The position numbers and the translations under genes were made by a program. A DNA stretch of 64,000 bases from Armatimonadota bacterium (GTDB lineage Bacteria > Armatimonadota > HRBIN16), in contig JBMFOT010000004.1 of the NCBI GenBank assembly GCA_049969495.1, positions 11,906 to 75,905 on the forward strand. The letters are read 5' to 3'. This document shows, in pieces, positions 8,641-51,570 of the stretch; position 1 is the first letter of the stretch, and every line of letters starts with the position of its first letter. The notes under the pieces were generated by a model, which saw only the letters and a list, made by a program, of their open reading frames with translations, did not search any database and was not told where the DNA came from.

Positions 8641-8655
8641 CAGGGGGCGTGTGCG

Positions 8656-8841
8656 CTAGTACAAGTGCGCGGTCATTCCATTGCAGAGAAGCACACCATT
8701 GACGGATAAAGTCGTTCCCATCCTCTGTACGATTTGAATGTCGAGTTGGGAGTAATCCTGTTTCAGCTTTTGGAGCTCTGCTGCCCACTGCGGATTTTTC
8801 TCCACAAAGGTATAGCTATCGAACTTCTTTTCGATGTCCAA
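8656..8841 (-). CDS. small hypothetical protein in low-GC segment (TTG start)
   Basis: 61-codon ORF with protein-like composition inside a roughly 48% GC island. No SD. Weak support. Confidence 0.2.
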   Translation of the reverse strand: MDIEKKFDSYTFVEKNPQWAAELQKLKQDYSQLDIQIVQRMGTTLSVNGVLLCNGMTAHLY

Positions 8842-8970
8842 CGCAACCCGGGGACTGCCTTCGCAGGATTCGTGCCAACGCCAGTTGGCTTCGCCACAGG
8901 AGAACGGCTTCAGCTGTGCGGGGACACCTCAACAGCTCGGACGGAGCCTCGCCCTCTCATTAGAAAAGGT

Positions 8971-9000
8971 TGACAAATGTCTGCTTTTCTGCTGTACAGG
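8971..9000 (+). promoter_or_regulatory. candidate promoter of the phage head module
   Basis: TTGACA at 8971-8976 followed by a weak -10 (TGTACA). It lies 20-45 nt upstream of the SD GGAAGGAGGTGA and ATG 9019. Confidence 0.25.
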
Positions 9001-9018
9001 GTGGAAGGAGGTGAGCGC

Positions 9019-9793
9019 GATGGAAGTGGAGCGGGAGGCGAAGCTGTTTGAAGCCGGCTCCTATCCGGACAAGGGGCTGGAAGTGAGCGAGGAGCAGTTG
9101 CAGGCGCTGGTGGAGGGCTTTACCGCGCCGGTTCCGCTGATGGTAGAGCATCTGTCGCAGGGATGGCAGATTGGGCAGTTGAAGCGGTTGTGGCGACGGG
9201 GCAAGGAGCTGTTCGGGCGGCTGACCCTGCTGCCGGAGGCGGAGGCTCTGCTCAAACGGTTGGGCGTTCGTGGCATTAGTGTCGCGGTGACGCCTGATGT
9301 GAAGCGGATTGTAGAGGTATCGGTGACGGCGACGCCGCGGGTGGCGGATGCGCGCCTGCTCAGTGCGGGCGCGTTAACCTTTTCTGGGGAGATACTTTTG
9401 ACGGAGGTGACCGCGTTGGAACAGGATATGGAGGCGTTGCGCCAGCGGGCGGAGGCGGCAGAGTTTGCCCTGCGCGAGCGGCAGGTAGAGGAGACGCTGC
9501 AACGATGGCTTCGGCAGGGAAAGCTGACGCCGGCGACGCGCGAGATGGCGAAGACGCTGCTTCTGGAGGGTACGCAGACGGTGACCTTTGCAGGCGGTAG
9601 TGTAAGCATGGCGGAGGTGTTCGCCCGTTTTGTGGAGGCGTTGCCGCCGATGGTGCGTTTTGGCGAGGTGGCGCCGGCGGGAGAACCGGAGCATACACTG
9701 AGCGCGGAGGAGGAGGCGTTCCTGCGCAAGTACTGGGGCGACCTTTCGCCTGAGCGGATTGCCCGTTATCTGTCGGAAGGAAGGAGGCGATAG
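9019..9793 (+). CDS. phage head maturation protease/scaffold protein, Mu gpI-like
   Basis: SD GGAGG 8 nt upstream. Sits directly upstream of DUF2190 and gpT genes. C-terminal helical region carries a GKLTPATREMAKTLL motif reminiscent of Mu gpI. Confidence 0.55.
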
Positions 9794-9796
9794 GAG

Positions 9797-10210
9797 ATGG
9801 CAGCGTTGACGAGCGCGTACGACCCACAGGACAAGCCGGGCGAGCTGGTGAGCTACAAGGTAGGGGCGAACACGGTGATTTATAAAGGCGCGCTGGTGAG
9901 CGTGCGCAGCGATGGCTACGCCTACCCCTCGCGCAGCGGCACCGGTAGCGACGTGTTCGTAGGGGTGGCGTTCGAGAGCGTGGACAACACAGGCGGTGCG
10001 GCGGGCGCGAGGTCGGTGCGCGTGTGGAAGAGCGGCACTTACGTGTACAACGGCAGTGGCTTCACACAGGCGAGCGTGGGGCAAGCGATGTACGCAGCGG
10101 ACGACAACACGCTGACCACCACTTCTACCAACAACCAGCTGGTGGGCTACGTGGTAGAGGTGCTTTCGGCGACGCAGGCACGCATTCGGATCGACAACGC
10201 GGTACGGTAA
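9797..10210 (+). CDS. DUF2190 family phage protein (capsid cement/decoration-like)
   Basis: VFVGVAFESV...GTYVY...LTTT.TNNQLVGYVVEV...ARIRI pattern typical of DUF2190 proteins, which sit between protease and major capsid genes. Confidence 0.55.
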   Translation: MAALTSAYDPQDKPGELVSYKVGANTVIYKGALVSVRSDGYAYPSRSGTGSDVFVGVAFESVDNTGGAAGARSVRVWKSGTYVYNGSGFTQASVGQAMYAADDNTLTTTSTNNQLVGYVVEVLSATQARIRIDNAVR

Positions 10211-10224
10211 GAGGAGGATAGACG

Positions 10225-11151
10225 ATGCCAGCGATTACACGGAGCGAGATGGGCGTCCTGCTGGAGGCAGGTTTGCGTGCGGACTTCTTCGAGGCGTATC
10301 GGCGGCAGGTGGAGTCGGCGATTTACCCGCAGATTGCAACGGTGATTCAGACCGAGCTGCCCGCGCAGAAGTACGGGTGGCTGGGCAGTGTACCCGCGAT
10401 GCGCGAATTTGTGGACGAGCGCATGCCGAAGGGCTTGCGAGTAACTCATTACACCATTCAGGACACGGTGTGGGAGAGCACGATAGCGGTGGAGAGGCGC
10501 GCCCTGGAGGATGAGCAGATCGGAGCCATCCGGCTACGGGTGCAGGATTTGGGGCGCGAGGCGGCACGGCACAAGGACTATCTGGTGGTGAAAGCGTTGC
10601 TAGACGGGTTCAGCCAGGCGTGCTATGACGGTCAACCGCTCTTCTCGAATGCACACTCGGAGGGCGAGAGCGGCGCGCAGAGCAACGTCACTACCCAACC
10701 GCTGAATCCAGACAGCTTGCAGAGTGCCATCTCCACCATGATGCTGTTCAAGGACGACCAGGGCGTGCCTCTGGGCATTCTGCCGGATACGTTACTGGTG
10801 GGCCCGCGTTTGCGCTGGGCGGCGATGGAGCTGCTGGAGTCGCAGGTGGTAGTGGTTAAGGCGGGCACAGGCGACAACACGCCGTATCGCAACGTGCTGC
10901 AAGGTGCGCTGAGGCTGGTGGTCAGTCCGTATATCACGGGCAATCAGTGGTTTGTGCTGGACACCAGTCGGGCGGTGCGCGCGGTAATCCTGCAGGAGCG
11001 GTCGGATGTGCCGGTAGAGTTCTCGGCATTAGAGGACCCGTCGGTGAGCGAGAGCGTGTTTTTGCGGGACGTGGTGTATTACGGTGCGCGAGCGCGTTAC
11101 GGCGTGGGCTACGGCTTGTGGCAGACCGCTTACGGCAGCAACGCGAGCTAA
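10225..11151 (+). CDS. Mu-like prophage major head subunit gpT
   Basis: Size and sequence features match the Mu gpT family (PF10124-like), including the C-terminal ...YYGARARYGVGYGLWQ region. Strong SD GAGGAGG. Followed by a GC-rich palindrome. Confidence 0.8.
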   Translation: MPAITRSEMGVLLEAGLRADFFEAYRRQVESAIYPQIATVIQTELPAQKYGWLGSVPAMREFVDERMPKGLRVTHYTIQDTVWESTIAVERRALEDEQIGAIRLRVQDLGREAARHKDYLVVKALLDGFSQACYDGQPLFSNAHSEGESGAQSNVTTQPLNPDSLQSAISTMMLFKDDQGVPLGILPDTLLVGPRLRWAAMELLESQVVVVKAGTGDNTPYRNVLQGALRLVVSPYITGNQWFVLDTSRAVRAVILQERSDVPVEFSALEDPSVSESVFLRDVVYYGARARYGVGYGLWQTAYGSNAS

Positions 11152-11164
11152 CCCTCACCCCCTG

Positions 11165-11192
11165 CCCCTCTCCCAACGCTGCGGGAGAGGGG
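11165..11192. terminator. REP-like palindrome after the major capsid gene
   Basis: CCCCTCTCCC-AACGCTGC-GGGAGAGGGG, a perfect 10-bp stem. Same family as the elements at 13822-13851 and 32983-33012. Confidence 0.5.
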
Positions 11193-11195
11193 TGT

Positions 11196-11310
11196 TCGCT
11201 ATGCATGAAGAAGGCACTGAGAAAAATACTTCGTGTCTTAGTGGTGAATAACCACAAAGGCACTAAGGCACTAAGAAAAATACTTCGTGTCTTTGTGTCT
11301 TAGTGGTGAA
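11196..11310. repeat. low-GC imperfect tandem duplication (about 45-bp unit ending TAGTGGTGAATAA)
   Basis: AAGGCACTGAGAAAAATACTTCGTGTCTTAGTGGTGAATAA and AAGGCACTAAGAAAAATACTTCGTGTCTTTGTGTCTTAGTGGTGAATAA, joined by CCACAAAGGCACTAAGG. Confidence 0.6.
11205..11303 (+). CDS. possible 32-aa cationic repeat peptide (MKKALRKILRVLVVNNHKGTKALRKILRVFVS)
   Basis: ORF spanning the tandem repeat. Only a weak SD. Could be non-coding. Confidence 0.15.
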   Translation: MKKALRKILRVLVVNNHKGTKALRKILRVFVS

Positions 11311-11323
11311 TAAGAGGTGCATA

Positions 11324-11569
11324 ATGGACATCGGCATTCAGGTTTTGACGCTTATCGGGGCGATGGTGTCGGCGCAGTGGGCGTTTGCGCGGTTGACGTT
11401 GCGCGCGCTGGAGCGCATCATTCAGGCACAGGAGCAGACGCTTCGGGAGCACCTGACACGGCTGGAACAGGCGGTGCGGGGAAACACGGAGGCGCTTCAG
11501 GCTCTGAAAGAAACTCTTGCCTGCGTAAGGTTAAGCCATGCACGCTGGGCAGCAAGCAGAAAGGAGTGA
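11324..11569 (+). CDS. hypothetical small protein (hydrophobic N-terminus plus coiled coil)
   Basis: SD AAGAGG 6 nt upstream of ATG 11324. 81 aa. Confidence 0.45.
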   Translation: MDIGIQVLTLIGAMVSAQWAFARLTLRALERIIQAQEQTLREHLTRLEQAVRGNTEALQALKETLACVRLSHARWAASRKE

Positions 11570-11571
11570 GG

Positions 11572-12639
11572 ATGTTGCGATTCACCGATACAATGGGACG
11601 ATGGCAGGCGGTGCGGAGTGACGCGCCTTTTCCGGTAGCGGGTGGGCAGGTTCTGCACTGGCTGAACGACGACTTCAACACCGTGCTGGATACCGATATG
11701 TGGGAGGTGGTGTCGGGCAGCCCCGCTGTTGCCAGCGGCGAGCTGACCGTCGCCAGCGGCGTCGTGTTGCTCAGCAAAAAGTCGTTCCAGCCGCCATGCC
11801 TGATTGAATGCGTGGAGATGATGACCGCCCGCGCATCAACCGATAACTTCCGCATCGGCTTCTACACGGATGACAACAACCTCGTGGAGTGGAGCGCGAC
11901 GGGCACGGATCAAGCCCGCATGGACGCGCGGATGTCGGCGGGCGGTGTGGTCTCTGACCAGACGATTATCAACGTGGGTGCAGCGAACCTCTCCTACCGT
12001 CTTGCTTCCATCTACGTCGGACTGGGTGAAGCGGTCTGGGCGTATAGGACTATCAACAGCCAACTCGTACGCAATGAGGTGTATCGGATCGCTGAGAGCG
12101 GTATTCCTTCCGGCCCGTTCCGCGTCCGACTGGCAGGTCTTGCAGGCACCAGCACGTTGAAGGTGCATCGCGTGACGGCGTATCAGCTGGCGGAAACCGT
12201 TCCCCCTGGCGCGTTGGGTCATCACGTGGACGGGATGGCGTTGCCGGTCAGGCTGACCAACACGCCGTTTGCCACACAACCTTCCACCACCGCACTGGGT
12301 AGCATTCAGTCCACCACCGATACCTTCTCGTCACTGGCAGTGGGCACGGTGGGGACTGGCAGCAACCGCGCCTTCTACTCGGAGCAGTGCCACATCCAAG
12401 CGCATTTTCAGGGCGACCAACCGTTTAGCGCGTGGGTGGAAGCGCAGATCGATGGCACGAACTGGCAGGTGGTGTGGTATGGTCAGAGCATTGACGCCAC
12501 GACCGATGCGGTGCTTCGGTACTACGCGCAGAGCCCCATCATGCAGATATATGGTTCACGCAACTTCCGCGTGAAGGTGAAGAACACGGGAGCCGCTGCG
12601 GGCACCTTCAGGGGCACATTGGTAGCGACGATGCTATAG
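11572..12639 (+). CDS. hypothetical beta-rich phage-associated protein
   Basis: SD AAGGAG. ATG 11572 lies 2 nt after the upstream stop. 355 aa. No recognised motif. Confidence 0.5.
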   Translation: MLRFTDTMGRWQAVRSDAPFPVAGGQVLHWLNDDFNTVLDTDMWEVVSGSPAVASGELTVASGVVLLSKKSFQPPCLIECVEMMTARASTDNFRIGFYTDDNNLVEWSATGTDQARMDARMSAGGVVSDQTIINVGAANLSYRLASIYVGLGEAVWAYRTINSQLVRNEVYRIAESGIPSGPFRVRLAGLAGTSTLKVHRVTAYQLAETVPPGALGHHVDGMALPVRLTNTPFATQPSTTALGSIQSTTDTFSSLAVGTVGTGSNRAFYSEQCHIQAHFQGDQPFSAWVEAQIDGTNWQVVWYGQSIDATTDAVLRYYAQSPIMQIYGSRNFRVKVKNTGAAAGTFRGTLVATML

Positions 12640-12641
12640 GG

Positions 12642-12824
12642 GTGATGGTGATGAAGCGCATTCTGAAGCCGCTGATTATCCGGTGGTTAGATGAGCGGGC
12701 GTTGCGGCTGCCGCACTCGGTTAGGGAGAAGCTGGCGGATCGGTTGCAGGTAGAGGTCGCGCTCATCACCGCCGTAGAGGAAGCGATACGCGAGCAGATC
12801 ATCAAGAGCATACAGGAGTGGTGA
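12642..12824 (+). CDS. hypothetical small protein
   Basis: Tightly packed after the upstream gene. 60 aa. Confidence 0.35.
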   Translation: MMVMKRILKPLIIRWLDERALRLPHSVREKLADRLQVEVALITAVEEAIREQIIKSIQEW

Positions 12825-12827
12825 GAG

Positions 12828-13034
12828 ATGAGGGCATACGTGAAGGCTATCGGCACGAGCAACGTCACCCTCGTGGACATAGACAGCGGGGAGCGGTTCA
12901 GCGCGGGACTGGCTGCCATCCAGAAGCTGTTCGGTGTGGAGCTGAAGGAGGGCGACGTGTGGGAGTTCTACGCGAGCAAGCGTGACGACATCGCGGAGAA
13001 CTTCAAGCGGTGGCAGCTGGTTCAGCAGGCGTAG
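12828..13034 (+). CDS. hypothetical small protein
   Basis: SD GGTGAGAG upstream. 68 aa. Confidence 0.4.
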   Translation: MRAYVKAIGTSNVTLVDIDSGERFSAGLAAIQKLFGVELKEGDVWEFYASKRDDIAENFKRWQLVQQA

Positions 13035-13047
13035 GAGGTAGCGGTGG

Positions 13048-13467
13048 ATGGCGATTACGGTCACACGAGAGGCGGTGAAGCGCACCGCGGCGGTATCGTC
13101 CACCGCTTACGATGCCCAGGTCGATGCGCTCATTACCGACCTGGTTCCGGTGATAGAGTACACGCTGTCGTCGGACGCGCTGGCGGATAGCACGCTGGAG
13201 CCGGTGCTCAGTCGGGGCGCGACGGAGATTATCGCGGGCGAGTTTCTGGCACAGCGGTTGCGCGAGGAGGGGGCCACCGAGGCGTTCGAGGCGGGCGGCG
13301 TACGGGTGGGTGAAAGCCCTCAATCGCGCGCCGATTTGGGCGACCCGTACGGCCTGATTCAGCGTGGGTGGGCGCGGCTCATGCCTTTCCTGAAGCCGGT
13401 ATACACGCAATCCACCACGCGCAATCGGGAGCGGCAGGTTTCAGAGCAGACGATGCTGGGCTGGTAG
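13048..13467 (+). CDS. phage head-tail connector candidate (gp36/DUF1320-like size and position)
   Basis: 139 aa, directly downstream of the head genes. Assigned by size and synteny only. Confidence 0.35.
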   Translation: MAITVTREAVKRTAAVSSTAYDAQVDALITDLVPVIEYTLSSDALADSTLEPVLSRGATEIIAGEFLAQRLREEGATEAFEAGGVRVGESPQSRADLGDPYGLIQRGWARLMPFLKPVYTQSTTRNRERQVSEQTMLGW

Positions 13468-13782
13468 GTGAGGGAGATGTCGGCGCGAGCAGAACGGCTG
13501 AGGTCGCTGGTGAAGCGGCATGGTGAAGATGTGGTAGTGAACGGTACGCGCACGGTGCGCATGGTGGTGTTCGTGGCAACGAGCGGGCTGTTGCGCAGTC
13601 TGTTTACCGACAACGACCTACTAACTTTCAGCCGCCCGATGTGGGCAGGGGTGGTGGCGGCGGACGAAGTGCTGAACGAGGGCGATAGCATCTCCCGCGA
13701 CGGAGTGAGCCACACAGTGCGGAGGGTGATCACCCTGAAAAGCGGAAATGCCCCCGCTGTGAAGGTAGCAGTGTGGTGGTAG
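13468..13782 (+). CDS. phage head-tail joining protein candidate
   Basis: 104 aa. ATG overlaps the upstream stop. Assigned by position in the module only. Confidence 0.35.
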   Translation: MREMSARAERLRSLVKRHGEDVVVNGTRTVRMVVFVATSGLLRSLFTDNDLLTFSRPMWAGVVAADEVLNEGDSISRDGVSHTVRRVITLKSGNAPAVKVAVWW

Positions 13783-13851
13783 GGGCAACCCCCTGTGGTT
13801 GCCCCTATCCCCCTGTGGTTGCCCCTATCCAACCATGCGACGGGAGAGGGG
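13782..13851. terminator. cluster of REP-like palindromes between convergent genes
   Basis: GGGGCAACC-CCCTGT-GGTTGCCCC hairpin, a tandem copy of CCCTGTGGTTGCCCCTATCC, then CCCCTATCC-N11-GGGAGAGGGG. Confidence 0.5.
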
Positions 13852-13858
13852 CGTTCAA

Positions 13859-15361
13859 TTATTCATCTCCGACTTCCCCGAAGTTGCGCACCAGAATGCC
13901 GAAATCGAACAGGGTGATTTCGCCGTCGCCGTCGAAGTCGGCGGTGGGTTCAAAGCCCTCCTCTCCCTCCAGTTTACCGAACGCGCTGACCAGTTTGCCG
14001 AAATCGAACAGCGTCACCTCGTTATCGCCGTCGGCGTCGCCGTTGGCGAGGTTCAGCGTCAGAGTTCCTGCCGGCACGGTGATACCCGTCAGCACGCGGC
14101 GCAGGGAGCGGTCTGCCTTGAAGGCAAGGGTATAGGTTGTCGGCGTGAGGATGAGGTCAAACGTGCCATCGGCGTTCAGTGTCGGACTGAAAGTGAGCAG
14201 GGTTTCGCCCGTTGCTGCCGAGCGCACTTCCACCTGCAGAGGCAATCTGGAGTAGTCGCCCGTGTATCCGTCCATGTTCACAGTGACGGCAGTAGGTACC
14301 GGTGTCATCAGGAAGGCACGGGTGATGCCGTTGTGCGCACCGTAGCCGGTAATCTGTCCGAAGTTGTTGATGGCACGCGCTTCGTTAAGCACCCAGCCGG
14401 AACCTGCAGGCAGGAGGTCGTTGAGGTTGCGAAGCACGCCGTCTACCCACAGGAAGGCACGCAAGGAGACGTTGTCCGATAGATAGGAGTGCCCTACCAC
14501 GTGCCCGAGTTGATTGATACCGAAGGCGCGTCCTGTGTTGCCCCCCAGTGTGCCCAGATCGATGACGGTGGTACCTTCCCACAGTACGGGACGGGTGAGG
14601 GTGCTGGTTCCCACGCGCGTGTTGGAGAAGCCCACCACCTGCCCTCGGTCGTTGATGCCGAAGGCCTCGGAGATCGTGCCGTTTGGCAGATAGGGCAGGG
14701 CATCAGTGAGCGGGTTGATAGCGGCGTAGGGCTGTGTACGGAAAGCGCGTCGGCTGCCTGCCGAGCCGGAGCCTCCCACCACCTGTCCGAGGTTGTTGAT
14801 GTCGTTGGCTAGGCTGATTTCGTCGGGATTGCCGGTGATGTTACCGAGGTCAAACCAGTCCCACCAGCCGCCCGGGTTGTAACTCCAGCGGAAGGCGTGG
14901 TACACCCCGTCGGGGTTGATAGCAGACCATCCCACGACGTGTCCGGTGTTGTTAATGCCGTACGCTCTGCCCTGCCAGGTGTTGGGGATAGGACGCAGGT
15001 CTACCATCTCGCCCGGGTCTGCCTGGCGGTTGCCGTTAAGGTCTTGCCAGATAAAAGGATGGCGTGCCTGCGCGGTGTCGGTCCAACCCACGACCTGCCC
15101 CAAGTCGTTCACGTCGCGCCCTTCGCTGGCAGTGCCCGACAATACCCCCAGGTCAATCATCACACCACCTGTCCAGAAGAAGGCGTGTCCATCCGACCAT
15201 CCGACGACTTCGCCGAGGTTGTTGATGCCGTAGCCGCGGCTTTGCCCGTTCGCGGTGATCGCGCCCAGGTCGGTGATGGTATACTGTGCGTGGGCGACGG
15301 AGAGGCTTAGCGCGAAGGAGAACGCGCAGGCGAACACGTAAAGGGTTGGTAGGCGAACCAT
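13859..15361 (-). CDS. secreted HAF-repeat protein with C-terminal CarboxypepD_reg-like plus dockerin module
   Basis: Signal peptide. Repeated GINNxGxVVGWS/GINDRGQVVGFS units (HAF family). C-terminal DADGDNEVTLFDFG...DFDGDGEITLFDFGILVRNFGEVGDE double EF-hand (dockerin type I-like). Confidence 0.75.
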   Translation of the reverse strand: MVRLPTLYVFACAFSFALSLSVAHAQYTITDLGAITANGQSRGYGINNLGEVVGWSDGHAFFWTGGVMIDLGVLSGTASEGRDVNDLGQVVGWTDTAQARHPFIWQDLNGNRQADPGEMVDLRPIPNTWQGRAYGINNTGHVVGWSAINPDGVYHAFRWSYNPGGWWDWFDLGNITGNPDEISLANDINNLGQVVGGSGSAGSRRAFRTQPYAAINPLTDALPYLPNGTISEAFGINDRGQVVGFSNTRVGTSTLTRPVLWEGTTVIDLGTLGGNTGRAFGINQLGHVVGHSYLSDNVSLRAFLWVDGVLRNLNDLLPAGSGWVLNEARAINNFGQITGYGAHNGITRAFLMTPVPTAVTVNMDGYTGDYSRLPLQVEVRSAATGETLLTFSPTLNADGTFDLILTPTTYTLAFKADRSLRRVLTGITVPAGTLTLNLANGDADGDNEVTLFDFGKLVSAFGKLEGEEGFEPTADFDGDGEITLFDFGILVRNFGEVGDE

Positions 15362-17850: not shown

Positions 17851-17963
17851 GCATCCTCGTTACTTTACCGTTTTTTGTCCAATCCCCGCAAAGTGCGCAA
17901 TAGGTATGGCACTCCTCTTGCACTATTTCAGGGTGGAAACACCTTATGAAGGAGGAGTGTCTG

Positions 17964-18665
17964 ATGAGTCGATGGATTTTGAGCCTTGCAGTTGGGCTTG
18001 CGCTTGCCAGCAGTGCCTGCGCAGTGACCATCAGCCTGCACAGTTACGATACCAGCTACACCGCCGATACCGTTCTGGACGGCAGCACCCGTTGGGTCTA
18101 TATCGGCGCAATACGCCTGAATATTACGGGAGACCCCTTGCCAAAGGAAGCGTGGTGTGTGGACCTGAAGCAAGCGGTGGCGAGTGGTTCCTGGGACGCC
18201 GTGCAAAAGAACACCATCGCTACTGCGCTGGACGATGGGCGTCGTGCGGACTGGGCGATGGGCGCGTTGTGGAAGAACCGCCCCTCCGCTATCGATGCAC
18301 GGGGGCGTGCTGCGCTACAATTAGCGATATGGGAGGCGTTGTACGATGGTTTCGGCGCGAATCCGTTCAGCAGTGGACGCTTTCGCGTGACGAACGTGTT
18401 CAACGGCACAAACCGCAGCTCTACCGATAGCCTGACCCTGACGCTGGCGCAGAGCTATCTGCAGGCATGGAACGGTCTGGGCGTTCCGAACGGCGTTCTG
18501 TACGACGCTCCCTTGCCCGGTGCGGGCACACGCTCGCAGGATTTCATCCTGACACCGGGAGGGGGATTTACCCCTCAAGCGGTTCCTGAAGGGGGGACGC
18601 TTTCGCTGACGCTAGCCGGGTTGCTGGGTGTAGGCGGTCTGTTGAGGCGGCGGATAATGATGTAG
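17964..18665 (+). CDS. PEP-CTERM sorting domain secreted protein
   Basis: SD GAAGGAGG 8 nt before ATG 17964. Signal peptide. C-terminal VPEGGTLSLTLAGLLGVGGLLRRR, which is a PEP-like motif, a TM helix and an Arg cluster. Confidence 0.7.
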   Translation: MSRWILSLAVGLALASSACAVTISLHSYDTSYTADTVLDGSTRWVYIGAIRLNITGDPLPKEAWCVDLKQAVASGSWDAVQKNTIATALDDGRRADWAMGALWKNRPSAIDARGRAALQLAIWEALYDGFGANPFSSGRFRVTNVFNGTNRSSTDSLTLTLAQSYLQAWNGLGVPNGVLYDAPLPGAGTRSQDFILTPGGGFTPQAVPEGGTLSLTLAGLLGVGGLLRRRIMM

Positions 18666-18719: not shown

Positions 18720-18741
18720 GGGCAACCACAGGGGGTTGCCC
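18720..18741 (-). terminator. intrinsic terminator for the minus-strand GNAT operon (inverted copy of the 13782 REP element)
   Basis: GGGCAACC-ACAGGG-GGTTGCCC. On the minus strand the hairpin is followed by GATGTTTTT. Confidence 0.55.
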
Positions 18742-32045: not shown

Positions 32046-33092
32046 ATGGAGCGTATCGTTCTGGCTTCGCCGCGTGGGTTTTGCGCCGGGGTGTCGTACG
32101 CGATAGAGGTGCTGGACCTGGCGATTAAGGCATACGGCACACCGATATACATGCGCCACGCGATTGTACATAATGAGCATGTGGTGCGCTCGTTCGAGCG
32201 ACGCGGGGTCATCTTTGTGGAAGAGGTATCGGAAATCCCGCGCGGCTCAACGGTTGTTCTCAGCGCGCACGGTGTGTCGCCACAGGTACGCCGCGAAGCG
32301 GCAGAGCGCAACTTGCGCGTCGTCGACGCCACCTGTCCCCTGGTCTCCAAGGTGCACCGCGAGGTACAGCGTTTTGCTTCGCAGGGCTATCACATCCTTT
32401 ACATCGGGCACGCTGGACATGTAGAAGCCTTGGGCACGATGGGACACGCCCCCGGGCAGATTACGCTGGTGCAGACGGTAGAAGACGCCGAGCGTGTACA
32501 AGTGCCGGACGGCAAGCTTGCAGTTGCCACGCAGACCACCCTGAGCGTGCACGAGGTGGAACGTGTGATGGCGGTGCTCAGACGACGTTTCCCGCACCTC
32601 GAAACACCTCCCAAAGAGGACATCTGCTATGCGACCACCAACCGCCAGAAAGCGGTCAGGGAGCTGGCAAAAGTGTGCGACCTGATACTGGTCATCGGCA
32701 GCCGCTCCAGCAGCAATTCCAACAGGCTGCGCGAGGTAGCAGAGGAGGCGGGCGTGCCCGCGTATCTGTTGCTGGAGCCCGAAGAGGTGCTTCCTGAATG
32801 GCGCACCGACTACCGCTCGGTAGGCGTTACCAGCGGTGCCTCCACGCCGGAAAGCTCGGTGGAGGCAATCATCGGCGAACTGCTGAAAGAGCATGAGCAC
32901 GTTCCCGTGCAGACCCTGGAGACCACCCGGGAGGACATCGCTTTTATCCCCCCGCGCACGTTGATTGCCAGCGCGAGTGTATCCCCCTCTCCCGAAGCTT
33001 CGGGAGAGGGGGCAAGGGGGCGAGGGTTACTCGTCCCCCATCGCGCCGAAGTTGCGAACCAGAATGCCGAAGTCAAACAGGGTGACCTCTAA
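32046..33092 (+). CDS. ispH: 4-hydroxy-3-methylbut-2-enyl diphosphate reductase, with a roughly 40-aa C-terminal extension
   Basis: SPRGFCAGV, ATCPLV and TTNRQ motifs with three conserved Cys. The ORF reads through the palindrome at 32983-33012. Confidence 0.85.
   Translation: MERIVLASPRGFCAGVSYAIEVLDLAIKAYGTPIYMRHAIVHNEHVVRSFERRGVIFVEEVSEIPRGSTVVLSAHGVSPQVRREAAERNLRVVDATCPLVSKVHREVQRFASQGYHILYIGHAGHVEALGTMGHAPGQITLVQTVEDAERVQVPDGKLAVATQTTLSVHEVERVMAVLRRRFPHLETPPKEDICYATTNRQKAVRELAKVCDLILVIGSRSSSNSNRLREVAEEAGVPAYLLLEPEEVLPEWRTDYRSVGVTSGASTPESSVEAIIGELLKEHEHVPVQTLETTREDIAFIPPRTLIASASVSPSPEASGEGARGRGLLVPHRAEVANQNAEVKQGDL
32983..33012. terminator. perfect 30-nt palindrome between convergent ispH and the lectin-dockerin gene
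   Basis: CCCCCTCTCCCGAAGCTTCGGGAGAGGGGG. Same family as the element at 11165. Confidence 0.5.
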
Positions 33093-35081
33093 ATCTCCGT
33101 CCAAATCGGCATCGGGGTTCCAGTTGCTATCGCCGGGCATGGAGCCGAACGCCGCTACCAGCCCACCGAAGTCAAACAGGGTGACCTCGTTGTCGCCGTC
33201 GATATCGCCGTTGGTGAGCGAGACATCCTGCCCGGTGACTTCCTCCGCCAGCCCAAGCGTAACACCTGTCAGGTTCACACGCAACCAGTGGCTGGCTTTG
33301 AAGGAAACCTCGTAGGTGCCCGGCTCTACCCACAGCGAGTAGTCGCCGTTGCGGTTGGTGAAGACGGTGCGGGTCTCTTCGCCACCGCCCTCCTTGCGCA
33401 AACGCACAGAGATGGGAACCAGCGATGGGTCACCTCCGTAGTCGCCCAGTGCGATATTTCCGCGGATCACCGCCAGCTTGCCATACAGCACAAAGGCGCA
33501 GTTCCAGCGGTCCTTCGGGTCTTGTCCCGCTTTAGGCTGGATGCTGTTTGGTGCGTACACCTCGAAGCCGGGGTTGGGGAAGGAGCGTGAACGCCACATG
33601 AAGTCCTGCTCTATTTCGGAGGGTTGGAGGTCGGCGCCGGTCAGCCACGCGAGCGCGCTGAAACCGGTAGTGTTGCCTGCACCGATGCCGTCCGAGTAGA
33701 TGGTCAGATAGTAATCACCTCCGGGCAGGAAGATGTCCAGGTTAGAGTAGCGGTGCAGCCAGTCCTCGCCGCCCGGAATGCGCGGGTCATTCACGCCAGC
33801 GGAGTATGCGCCCAGCACGCCCTGAGCCACCTGGTCGCCATCTACCGGTCGATTCAAGCCGGTACGTCGCCAGATGATGTAGCGCACGTTCGCACCCTGG
33901 TAACCATCCACCACAAACCAGTCGGCATCCACCTGGCTGATGACCGCACCGCCTGGCGGGATGCGGAAGGGAATGGCGGACCATCGCTGGGGCAGCGTCG
34001 CCGAATAGTTACCAGAGATGTAGCCCAGGTACACCTCCTGGTTGTTGGAGATGACCGTCTTCGGTGCGCCCGTGTCCCACACCACGCTTTTCGTGGACTC
34101 GTAGACCGCTGTGACGATGTGGTTGTCGTCCAGCGTGATCTGCAGTTCGGGGTCGCCGGAGTAGTCGACGCCGTCAATCTGCCATTTCTCGAACTCGTTA
34201 CCGTCGGGCGCAAAAGTTGCCGCGTTCAACGTAACAGGTGTGCCTGCCGGATACACGCGCACGAAGGGGGTCACCCCATTGCCGGTGCCCACCAGGTCGG
34301 CAGGTGCAGAGACGCTAACGCCCTCGTAGGGGTTGTCGCCCAGAATAATCAACGTGCGGGCAGGCGAGGTGAACGGCGTCAGCGTCCAGTTGAGCACATC
34401 GGTGTTTTCATAGGCGAACACCGTGCGTCCACTAAAGCCTACCCATGCGGAGCCGGAGCTGTCGAGCACGCCGGCGGCTGCGAGGTCAACAGCGAGTGTC
34501 AGCACCGCTTCGTTATCCACAGAGACGGTCAGCCAGCCTCCTGCATAGTCAATGCGTGCGGTGTGCACGCCTTCGTCATTAATGTTGATGGTGTTGGGGA
34601 AGAGGCTGGTGTATGTGCTCAGCGCGCCGTTGACATACACAGCAACCACGTTGGGGAAGTCGCCCTCTGGCAGACTGAAGAGAGTGGCAAAGCTCACGGT
34701 CACGGTTCCCGCGGTGCCCCTCTCATCAACGTTCAGGTTCGTCGAAACGTTCTGGATGTGGAATCCCAACCCGTGGCCCAGACCGTCCTCAGGCGACTGT
34801 CCATGCAACTGGAACCGGAAGGTGGTGGAGAAACCGTTTGTCAGGTTCTGCTTGGTGGTGTACCAGGCAGATCCCTGCTGATTCATGCGGTTTTCGGTCA
34901 GGCGGAGCCGGTTCGCGGTGACCTGGGCTGTACCCACCAGATTCAATCCTACCGAAGAACTGAAATCGGGGTAGTTAATCTGCGCGAAGGCGGGCACAAC
35001 TAGAAACGTAGCCAGCACCCAGCACAGCAAACCAATTGCATACCGGGTAGCACGAGACATCTGGATACCTCCTCCTTTCAT
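33027..35081 (-). CDS. secreted L-type-lectin-like protein with C-terminal CarboxypepD_reg-like plus dockerin module
   Basis: Signal peptide. N-terminal legume-lectin-like beta-sandwich signature. C-terminus DIDGDNEVTLFDFG...DLDGDLEVTLFDFGILVRNFGAMGDE. Confidence 0.7.
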   Translation of the reverse strand: MKGGGIQMSRATRYAIGLLCWVLATFLVVPAFAQINYPDFSSSVGLNLVGTAQVTANRLRLTENRMNQQGSAWYTTKQNLTNGFSTTFRFQLHGQSPEDGLGHGLGFHIQNVSTNLNVDERGTAGTVTVSFATLFSLPEGDFPNVVAVYVNGALSTYTSLFPNTININDEGVHTARIDYAGGWLTVSVDNEAVLTLAVDLAAAGVLDSSGSAWVGFSGRTVFAYENTDVLNWTLTPFTSPARTLIILGDNPYEGVSVSAPADLVGTGNGVTPFVRVYPAGTPVTLNAATFAPDGNEFEKWQIDGVDYSGDPELQITLDDNHIVTAVYESTKSVVWDTGAPKTVISNNQEVYLGYISGNYSATLPQRWSAIPFRIPPGGAVISQVDADWFVVDGYQGANVRYIIWRRTGLNRPVDGDQVAQGVLGAYSAGVNDPRIPGGEDWLHRYSNLDIFLPGGDYYLTIYSDGIGAGNTTGFSALAWLTGADLQPSEIEQDFMWRSRSFPNPGFEVYAPNSIQPKAGQDPKDRWNCAFVLYGKLAVIRGNIALGDYGGDPSLVPISVRLRKEGGGEETRTVFTNRNGDYSLWVEPGTYEVSFKASHWLRVNLTGVTLGLAEEVTGQDVSLTNGDIDGDNEVTLFDFGGLVAAFGSMPGDSNWNPDADLDGDLEVTLFDFGILVRNFGAMGDE

Positions 35082-50594: not shown

Positions 50595-51440
50595 CTATCC
50601 GTGGCGCCGCGCCCAGGAGTGAAAGTGCTCCTGAAGCCACATCGCGGTTTCCATCATAGATGGCCCTTCGTGGATAATGTTTTGCCCCTTTTGTACCGTA
50701 CCCACCACCACATAAGGCGCAGGGTTCCACCGGTGCCAGCGTCGCTCCTCGATAAGAGCCTTTACGTCCACTGGGTAGTCAGGTTCGGTGTGGAAAAGAA
50801 GCACATCGGGTCTCGCCACTGTTACCTGCTCAAGGTCAGGCACAAAGTAGGCACGACGGTCTCGCCCAAAGATGTTGTCTCCTCCAGTCGCTTCTATTAG
50901 GTCATGGATGAAGCTGAGCGCGCCGACCGTACGCAGATGCCTGCCAAACCACAGCTCGATGTAGACGCGCGGACGACGCGCCGGAGCGGACAGACAGAGC
51001 GTTTGAAACTGCTGTTCCCACCGCTGGCGCAGGCGACGGGCGGATTCCACCTCGTTCACTAGCCCTCCCAGCAGATTCAGGTTCTCCATCACCCCGCTGA
51101 TACTGCTGGGCAGCGGCAGGGCATACACCGGATAACCTGCTTGCGCCAGTTTGATGCCCAGCGTGCGCTGGATGCCGGTGGTGAGCAGTATCAGGTCGGG
51201 GTTTATCTGCCGGAGCAGGGATTCGTCCACACGCAGGTAGTCACCCACCACCGGCAGGTCGTTGGCGGGAATATAGCGGGAGCAATACACGGAGATGCCA
51301 GCCACTCGATGCCCACAGCCCATTTCGAAAAGGGCCTCGGTTAAAGAGGACGCCAGACAGACAATGCGCTGTGGATGGTCCGCGATATCGACGTTCACCC
51401 CCAGCGGTTCACAGAAAACTCGCACCGGATCCCTCCTCAT
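50595..51440 (-). CDS. ABC transporter substrate-binding protein, cluster A-II (BtuF/FhuD/TroA-like)
   Basis: RIVCLASSLTEALFEMG...PDLILL...YALP... Peripla_BP_2 pattern. No adjacent permease or ATPase. Confidence 0.65.
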   Translation of the reverse strand: MRRDPVRVFCEPLGVNVDIADHPQRIVCLASSLTEALFEMGCGHRVAGISVYCSRYIPANDLPVVGDYLRVDESLLRQINPDLILLTTGIQRTLGIKLAQAGYPVYALPLPSSISGVMENLNLLGGLVNEVESARRLRQRWEQQFQTLCLSAPARRPRVYIELWFGRHLRTVGALSFIHDLIEATGGDNIFGRDRRAYFVPDLEQVTVARPDVLLFHTEPDYPVDVKALIEERRWHRWNPAPYVVVGTVQKGQNIIHEGPSMMETAMWLQEHFHSWARRHG

Positions 51441-51570
51441 GAACAGCGCTACGCTCACAGTGTAGCAGTATTTGCAGCGGTTGTAAACCGGCTGGTGTAG
51501 TACCAATCAGGGGTGATACACGATAGCGCTTCCTACACAGGATGACTGCCGTTTAGGCGGGGGGAGGGCT

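Follow-up and report, generated by a model that had tools for sequence, protein, structure and literature searches.

An intact set of Mu-type phage head genes without linked tail genes, conserved across Armatimonadota, may encode a domesticated DNA-packaging particle

The genome of an Armatimonadota bacterium of the HRBIN16 lineage (assembly GCA_049969495.1) contains a set of phage head genes of Mu type. We analyzed these genes within a 64,000-nt stretch of contig JBMFOT010000004.1 (positions 11,906 to 75,905 of the forward strand; hereafter the window, whose own numbering is used throughout). An earlier note, made from the sequence alone, had described the locus as five genes plus small open reading frames (ORFs). 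Instead, positions 9020-13782 of the + strand hold nine co-oriented ORFs, separated by gaps of 0–15 nt save for one 150-nt spacer, and among them is a 355-aa ORF that the note did not mention (Table 1). Profile searches bore out its assignment of a gpI-like protease/scaffold, a DUF2190 protein and a gpT capsid protein, as well as of the secreted HAF protein and ABC ATPase that follow the module and of a gp29-like portal farther downstream. The locus holds intact Mu-type procapsid genes (protease/scaffold, capsid, decoration and portal) together with neck genes (a gp6/gpJ-type adaptor and the small protein that follows it). The gpT capsid, gpI-type protease/scaffold and gp29-type portal expected of a Mu-like head are all present. 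Neither a gp28-type large terminase subunit (TerL) beside the portal nor Mu F (gp30) was found; the 64-kb window has no TerL, and an ABC ATPase precedes the portal.

The GC content of the module is 61.6%, against 59.9% for the window, which we take as equal to the host. A Pfam scan of the window covered most ORFs of at least 150 aa. Outside the genes in Table 1, the scanned ORFs were either ordinary host-type genes (including IF-2, TruB, RibF, DnaK/DnaJ, succinate dehydrogenase, LytB, ParA/ParB, glycosyltransferases and a rhamnosidase) or had no family match. There was no terminase, tail, integrase or transposase gene among them, nor any MuA/MuB transposition gene, and tblastn of the whole window with a related TerL and the ORFs of the nearest phages as queries yielded no terminase or tail gene. 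The earlier note had been right about these absences.

Table 1. Features of the head-gene region, in window coordinates.
Feature	Position	Strand	Match or basis
Promoter-like footprint GTTGACAAATGTCT ... TGTACAGGGTGGAAGGAGGTG with Shine-Dalgarno, directly 5' of the protease gene	8969-9019	+	
Prohead protease fused to scaffold domain, Mu gpI-type, 257 aa	9020-9793	+	phrog_976 E 4e-12; PF10123 E 1e-3
Head decoration/cement protein, DUF2190	9797-10210	+	PF09956 E 4e-7; phrog_1731 E 3e-27
Major capsid protein, Mu gpT family, 308 aa	10225-11151	+	PF10124 E 3e-65
G+C-rich hairpin CCCCTCTCCC-N8-GGGAGAGGGG, 14 nt past the capsid stop	11165-11192	+	read from sequence
40% GC spacer with two-copy direct repeat	11211-11313	+	
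Small protein, 81 aa, N-terminal hydrophobic helix then coiled coil	11324-11569	+	
355-aa beta-rich protein, specific to the HRBIN16-type clade	11572-12639	+	
Small ORF, 60 aa	12642-12824	+	
Small ORF, 68 aa	12828-13034	+	
Head-tail adaptor, HK97 gp6 / Mu gpJ fold, 139 aa	13048-13467	+	
104-aa protein, head-closure/stopper position	13468-13782	+	role from position
Palindrome GGGCAACC-N6-GGTTGCCC, left copy, between convergent genes	13783-13804		
HAF-repeat secreted protein, dockerin-like C-terminus	13859-15361	-	TIGR02913 E 4e-53
ABC ATPase, corrinoid/siderophore class, MJ0874-like C-terminal domain, 425 aa	15472-16749	+	NF007082 E 3e-99
Portal protein, Mu gp29 family, 365 aa	16753-17850	+	PF06074 E 1e-72; phrog_113 E 2e-78
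Palindrome GGGCAACC-N6-GGTTGCCC, right copy, inverted relative to left, between convergent genes	18720-18741		

A scan with one genome per species gave 130 relatives, and the counts that follow refer to the best 80 of those 130 (species-level genome loci). Every record among the 80 that names a phylum names Armatimonadota, and the retrieved loci include one copy per genome. The capsid gene is intact in 80/80 loci at 50–97% identity. Decoration, protease and adaptor genes are full-length in 78, 74 and at least 50 loci, respectively, the shortfalls being due to contig ends or relocation. No internal stops occur in the capsid, decoration, protease, adaptor or portal genes of the 80 genomes. Apparent in-frame stops in the protease, portal and ABC alignments turned out to be natural stop codons. 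The comparison across relatives that the earlier note had proposed thus revealed an intact gene set, with no degraded orthologues of these five genes. Capsid homologues of 295–354 aa (nearly all 302–316) at 52–93% identity lie on contigs of up to 2.65 Mb, those that are named belonging to Armatimonadota, and portal homologues of 353–460 aa are found throughout the phylum. The sole disrupted module gene that we saw is the TerL of a Fimbriimonadales metagenome-assembled genome (MAG; locus L053, 15683-16975), which has one in-frame stop at query position 97 of 417 and may reflect an assembly error or a real loss.

The nearest relative is Bacterium HR16, whose capsid is 97% identical and whose genome is collinear with the window from 8.8 to 18.7 kb, the HAF, ABC, portal and PEP-CTERM genes included. 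The portal of KatS3mg022 shares 93% identity with that of the window. Kato et al. (PMC9671151) assigned this MAG to the class-level clade c__HRBIN16 and two others, KatS3mg015 and KatS3mg018, to Fimbriimonadia. The module is also present in KatS3mg015 (L002) and KatS3mg018 (L036), and the gene set therefore spans at least two classes. A neighbor-joining capsid tree groups the sequences by host lineage, separating HRBIN16-type, GBS-DC and Fimbriimonadaceae clades, and leaves phage sequences outside. The flanks are housekeeping genes that differ between lineages. One Fimbriimonadaceae genome, for example, has RseP, Dxr, LysA, M50 peptidase and TrpS as neighbors, while its TerL–portal pair adjoins ribosomal protein S20 and a SurA-like gene. 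The number of flanking families shared per pair of loci falls steadily from 3.1 at >90% capsid identity to 0.1 at 50–60%. Clustering of ORFs across loci revealed no integrase, replication gene or tRNA recurring beside the module.

Pairwise Nei-Gojobori dN/dS values between the window and the nine HRBIN16-type genomes of our comparison set (L006-L014) were 0.04–0.08 for the capsid gene, 0.02–0.11 for decoration, 0.08–0.11 for the portal, 0.10–0.15 for the adaptor and 0.08–0.26 for the protease; flanking host genes gave 0.05–0.15. Independent pairs in other lineages gave 0.01–0.10 for the capsid, 0.10–0.18 for TerL and 0.03–0.08 for the portal. Overall, the check for purifying selection that the earlier note had called for returned 0.01–0.10 for the capsid and 0.02–0.26 for the other named head genes. 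Synonymous divergence of the module tracks that of the flanking host genes (capsid dS of 0.36 vs. 0.18–0.30 for the flanks in L006, and 0.87 vs. 0.78–1.13 in L008). As in a gene transfer agent (GTA), these are host-chromosomal, vertically inherited, non-replicative genes under purifying selection.

The relatives also revealed what could not be known from the window alone, namely that small and large terminase subunits (TerS and TerL) and some lysis genes occur beside the same head genes. The order in L103 is TerS, TerL, an interposed PEP-CTERM gene, portal, protease/scaffold, decoration, capsid, a 121-aa gene, adaptor and the closure-position gene, after which come three small membrane-type ORFs and then host genes. 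TerS and TerL of L101 are 4.4 kb away with three host genes between, and its closure-position gene is followed by a holin-like 115-aa protein, an M15 endolysin (phrog_2649 E 3e-31) and two small genes. In L078 the protease, decoration, capsid, two small membrane proteins, adaptor, closure gene, TerL and portal follow one another within ~6 kb. Elsewhere the set is dispersed: the TerL–portal pair of GCA_026129715.1 is 19 kb from the capsid genes, and the protease–decoration–capsid trio alone stays together in the GBS-DC clade. TerL precedes the portal in Fimbriimonadaceae, and the TerL proteins keep their Walker A motif (ACGRRWGKT) and other invariant residues. Of the 83 distinct Armatimonadota loci used for clustering, 9 have TerL and about 15 have the portal no more than 10 kb from the capsid gene. 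The genomes in which an ABC ATPase stands before the portal, the window's included, form one clade in the capsid tree (the ABC-portal clade), and the ATPase occupies the site that TerL has in L078.

Tail genes were surveyed in about 90 genomes and contigs, and no tail gene was found within 10 kb in these loci. Clustering of all ORFs from the 83 loci and the first 30 kb of the window gave no tail-like family; the recurrent families were module genes, their shadow ORFs and housekeeping genes only. When all ORFs of the 15 nearest IMG/VR contigs were compared with the loci and the window, matches were limited to portal, protease, decoration, capsid and endolysin. The nearest phage (L086, IMGVR_UViG_3300003891_000003) has a Mu F-type gene after its portal and Neck1, tape-measure and Dit genes after its capsid, and none of these four matched any Armatimonadota locus. 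Collinear versions of the module end past the closure gene, where phage tail genes begin. These results argue strongly that the linked set does not include tail genes, and they cover neighborhoods rather than whole genomes.

We favor, with moderate confidence, the reading that Armatimonadota domesticated a phage-head gene set in ancient times and have inherited it vertically, that this region is its local portion, and that the set encodes a head-only DNA-packaging particle. The particle probably belongs to the host and is of a type that has yet to be described, and its function is best read as lying between that of a GTA and that of the packaging module of capsid-forming satellites. Under this reading, transcription would start from the conserved promoter at 8969-9019, the capsid protein would assemble around the scaffold on the portal ring, and the protease (His44/Ser87) would remove the scaffold. 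A TerL encoded elsewhere in the genome would pump DNA in through the portal, the decoration protein would stabilize the expanded shell, and the adaptor and 104-aa protein would seal the portal. Cell lysis would release the expected product, a capsid filled with DNA and lacking its own tail, which could then take up the tails of co-infecting phages, as capsid-forming satellites do, or serve as extracellular DNA in protected form. The HAF and ABC ATPase genes would be host genes that now lie inside a dispersed module. Conservation of the adaptor suggests a portal vertex made for docking something.

The known domesticated phage particles are tailed GTAs, in a few lineages, and tail-only bacteriocins. 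To our knowledge, head-only packaging modules occur only in mobile satellites. In the literature we found no description of a gene set like this one and no report of a GTA in Armatimonadota. Only tentatively do we propose that a class-spanning, host-owned capsid machine here truly lacks a tail and makes sealed, DNA-filled heads that borrow tails or deliver DNA otherwise; if so, tailed GTAs and tailocins would be joined by a third kind of domesticated phage particle. A head-only, chromosome-fixed set under strong selection in at least two classes suggests that capsids alone can be worth keeping over very long times, and it provides a case in which to examine "tail piracy", or capsid-protected DNA, as a host-level trait. 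Armatimonadota are poorly studied, and they are abundant and transcriptionally active in hot-spring mats for which metatranscriptomes already exist. Among the taxa active at Mushroom Spring and Octopus Spring are HRBIN16 "OTU12-like" and Fimbriimonadia "OTU3-like" (PMC11788075). Prophage finders label such loci "incomplete prophages", and a conserved cellular function is thereby hidden; a 7.1-kb "portal; head; capsid" region of a GBS-DC MAG is listed in this way in one survey (PMC8597652).

Comparison with known systems places the gene set next to several of them. Like the GTAs (RcGTA of Rhodobacter capsulatus, Bartonella BaGTA, Brachyspira VSH-1), it consists of host-owned, phage-derived structural and packaging genes, is inherited vertically over deep divergences under purifying selection, has no replication, integration or lysogeny genes, keeps some components at separate loci and in some lineages has lysis genes by the module. 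A holin-like gene and the M15 endolysin adjoin the module in L101, and an endolysin does so in L005, L029 and L038; the window has none. All GTAs that we know to have been described encode a tail next to the head genes, unlike the loci surveyed here. The head is also different, being of Mu gpT/gpI/gp29 type with DUF2190 decoration, and the host belongs to Armatimonadota. The phage-inducible chromosomal islands that form capsids (cf-PICIs) share with our set a head-only composition (capsid, protease, portal, adaptor and connector) with no tail module, and the sister lineages add TerS/TerL. They release tail-less, DNA-filled capsids that later bind phage tails, which gives the mechanism proposed here a working precedent (10.1101/2025.02.11.637232). 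In contrast to cf-PICIs, the Armatimonadota genes form no discrete 10–18 kb island and have no integrase, replication or regulation module; they are scattered among and interrupted by housekeeping genes, are vertical across classes, and in some lineages are accompanied by the lysis genes that cf-PICIs lack by definition. Of the TerS, TerL and HNH genes found within a cf-PICI, TerS/TerL are absent from the window (although present in L101 and L103), and we saw no HNH gene.

Mu-like tailed phages (among them the uncultured relative L086 and Faecalibacterium phage FP_Mushu) have homologous capsids (50% identity to L086, 34–37% to deposited phages), decoration proteins (57%), protease/scaffolds (38%) and portals (28%), in the same protease–decoration–capsid order. 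They differ in carrying Mu F-type, Neck1, tape-measure and Dit genes, and neither a transposase nor other early genes occur here. An encapsulin nanocompartment was ruled out, since a portal, protease/scaffold and adaptor are present and under selection.

Four other explanations were weighed against the domesticated head-only particle. One is a complete GTA whose tail genes are scattered to other chromosomal sites, as TerL and the portal are, and which makes a normal tailed particle. The module genes are demonstrably dispersed, as the 19-kb separation in GCA_026129715.1 and the reduction to three adjacent genes in the GBS-DC clade show, and an adaptor and closure-position protein under selection are what a tail-joining particle would need. 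Against this explanation, TerL (9 loci) and the portal (about 15) are often within 10 kb of the capsid, whereas a tail-like family never is in the 83 loci, and the versions with phage gene order stop just past the closure gene, where phage tail genes start. We consider this explanation unlikely. It is more improbable still that the capsid serves a non-DNA use, as a compartment for protein or metabolites or as a decoy that soaks up the tails of infecting phages, with TerL lost in the window's clade. Such a use would fit the lack of TerL within 10 kb in any ABC-portal clade genome, the host ABC ATPase at the TerL position and the membrane-anchored small protein conserved inside the module. However, the strong purifying selection that still acts on the portal, adaptor and closure-position genes of this clade makes little sense unless there is a DNA channel to be filled and sealed; TerL, too, is kept under selection in sister lineages, and no cargo gene is evident.

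The earlier note had offered two choices, a decayed Mu-like prophage or a tail-less capsid-encoding element, the latter either satellite-like or domesticated. The domesticated form of the second choice is the one we favor. That the genes belong to a mobile, PICI-type capsid-forming satellite, or to a fragment of one, seems highly improbable to us, even though their content (capsid, protease, portal, adaptor, connector and no tail) fits the cf-PICI packaging module (10.1101/2025.02.11.637232). No integrase, replication or regulation module adjoins the genes in any locus, the flanks are housekeeping genes with dS equal to that of the module, the retrieved loci hold a single copy per genome, host genes split the module, and the adaptor has no relative in IMG/VR. 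The first choice, a decaying, functionless prophage remnant, could account for the missing tail, transposase, Mu F and (locally) terminase genes, for the "incomplete" label that a published survey gave the GBS-DC MAG region (PMC8597652) and for the in-frame stop in the L053 TerL. It is contradicted by ORFs that are intact in 80 genomes, dN/dS of 0.01–0.26, host-like GC, conservation of the module across classes and a conserved promoter footprint, and we find it barely credible.

Several points weigh against a domesticated head-only particle. It is known from genes alone, and annotations of a capsid, portal or terminase are absent from the supplements of one hot-spring metatranscriptome paper. 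In genomes of the window's own (ABC-portal) clade, no TerL was found within 10 kb. Tail genes could be elsewhere in the genome: TerL, the portal and even the adaptor are already apart from the capsid in some lineages, so absence from the neighborhood is not absence from the genome. In addition, the dN/dS values are simple pairwise estimates, the adaptor fold was modeled from a single sequence, and the 104-aa protein is a putative head closure or connector by virtue of its position.

Among the individual proteins, the protease retains His44, Ser87, Glu99 and Ser101 invariantly, true phage homologues included. Searched as profiles against Pfam, PHROGs and PDB sequences, the adaptor and closure families gave just two weak PF05135 matches, and hhalign found no similarity between these families and the neck-position ORFs of phage L086. 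The adaptor family is without relatives in IMG/VR, so this route yielded no candidate tail donor. The 104-aa protein always stands directly 3' of the adaptor (43 loci in the clustering), has a dN/dS of 0.14–0.25 and gave no family or PDB match. The 81-aa protein is homologous to the same-position protein of Fimbriimonadaceae (hhalign probability 86%, E 6e-6), that is, between classes, and its gene has a dN/dS of 0.09–0.23; a role as a holin or membrane tether would be a guess.

The gene for the 355-aa protein is present in all HRBIN16-type loci (dN/dS 0.11–0.22). Its family has only 15 representatives among 1.84 billion proteins, with no match in Pfam, PHROG, NCBIfam or PDB (a profile search of the last returned nothing), and a single-sequence AF2 model had a pLDDT of 37 and was unusable. 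The C-terminal ~100 aa of this protein also occur as stand-alone proteins of ~100–117 aa (P0372-P0374), which weakly resemble a 140-aa gene 3' of the endolysin in L101 (13287-13709; hhalign E 0.016). The 60-aa and 68-aa ORFs that follow are clade-specific and fast-evolving (44–71% identity, dN/dS 0.13–0.45), and their coding status is uncertain.

Among the non-coding elements, the ~50-nt footprint at 8969-9019, with its TTGACA box and Shine-Dalgarno sequence, is the sole alignable stretch upstream of the protease gene in the nine HRBIN16-type genomes, and it is a putative promoter. Its 14-mer occurs once in the window and is not upstream of the other module genes there. A 61-aa ORF of uncertain coding status and no family match lies in the spacer upstream of the module (8656-8841, - strand). 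The earlier note had low-GC segments bounding the module on both sides. The upstream one, 8641-9018, is mildly low (53.7% vs. 59.9% for the window), while 11196-11310 (40%) is internal, between the capsid and the next gene. The latter spacer includes a direct repeat whose copies (11211-11243 and 11265-11297) are 94–96% identical. The hairpin at 11165-11192 looks terminator- or attenuator-like, and a related sequence is found at 13837-13852.

The palindromes that the earlier note reported are real: exactly two copies occur in the 64 kb, against 0.05 expected by chance. They are 27-nt inverted copies of each other, 100% complementary, and bracket the HAF–ABC–portal–PEP-CTERM block. The pair may represent scars left by a rearrangement, or else shared terminators that act in both directions.

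Of the interposed host genes, the HAF gene has its own sigma70-like promoter at 15468-15439 and is restricted to the HRBIN16-type clade. The dockerin-like C-terminal ~135 aa of its product share 52% identity with the C-terminal end of a lectin-domain protein that is encoded 18 kb away (33027-35081, - strand).

The ABC ATPase lies between the neck genes and the portal in the window's clade, OW818647.1, OY781964.1 and CAZHSN010000054.1, and is 4–12 nt upstream of the portal in HRBIN16-type genomes and L029 (four nt in the window). Most probably it is an ordinary subunit of a corrinoid-type transporter whose gene became fixed beside the portal in a single clade. This reading is based on NF007082, the model for corrinoid ABC transporter ATPases, which the protein matches over its full length (below the equivalog cut-off), on canonical ABC motifs visible in the sequence, on phage-free homologues and on a binding protein in the window. 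PF27219 is recorded on its orthologues, and proteins of the same architecture at 36–45% identity are found on many metagenome contigs without phage genes nearby. The binding protein is an orphan Peripla_BP_2 protein, the partner class of this ATPase, encoded 34 kb away (50595-51506, - strand), and neither gene has a permease beside it; functionally linked genes appear to be scattered in this genome. Replacement of the terminase by the ATPase was rated unlikely in view of the full-length corrinoid match, the phage-free homologues and the matching orphan binding protein, and a role for it in the head system of the HRBIN16-type clade has a low probability.

Several smaller observations concern the neighbors of the module in relatives. 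An M15 peptidase gene lies directly 3' of the portal in three ABC-portal clade loci (L005, 11091-11564; L029, 14075-14518; L038, 14931-15395). Fragments of the gene on phage contigs L086 and L090 are 57–68% identical, and it is absent from the window. A conserved protein of ~606 aa without a Pfam domain is encoded divergently, ~1 kb upstream of the head module, in seven Fimbriimonadaceae genomes (L001, 5655-7484, - strand) and could be a regulator or accessory gene of the module. PEP-CTERM secreted proteins adjoin module genes in three lineages (window, 17946-18665; L103, 9277-9918; L001, 7752-8456). The three have no detectable similarity to each other, and their placement may be chance, as such proteins appear to be common in these genomes.

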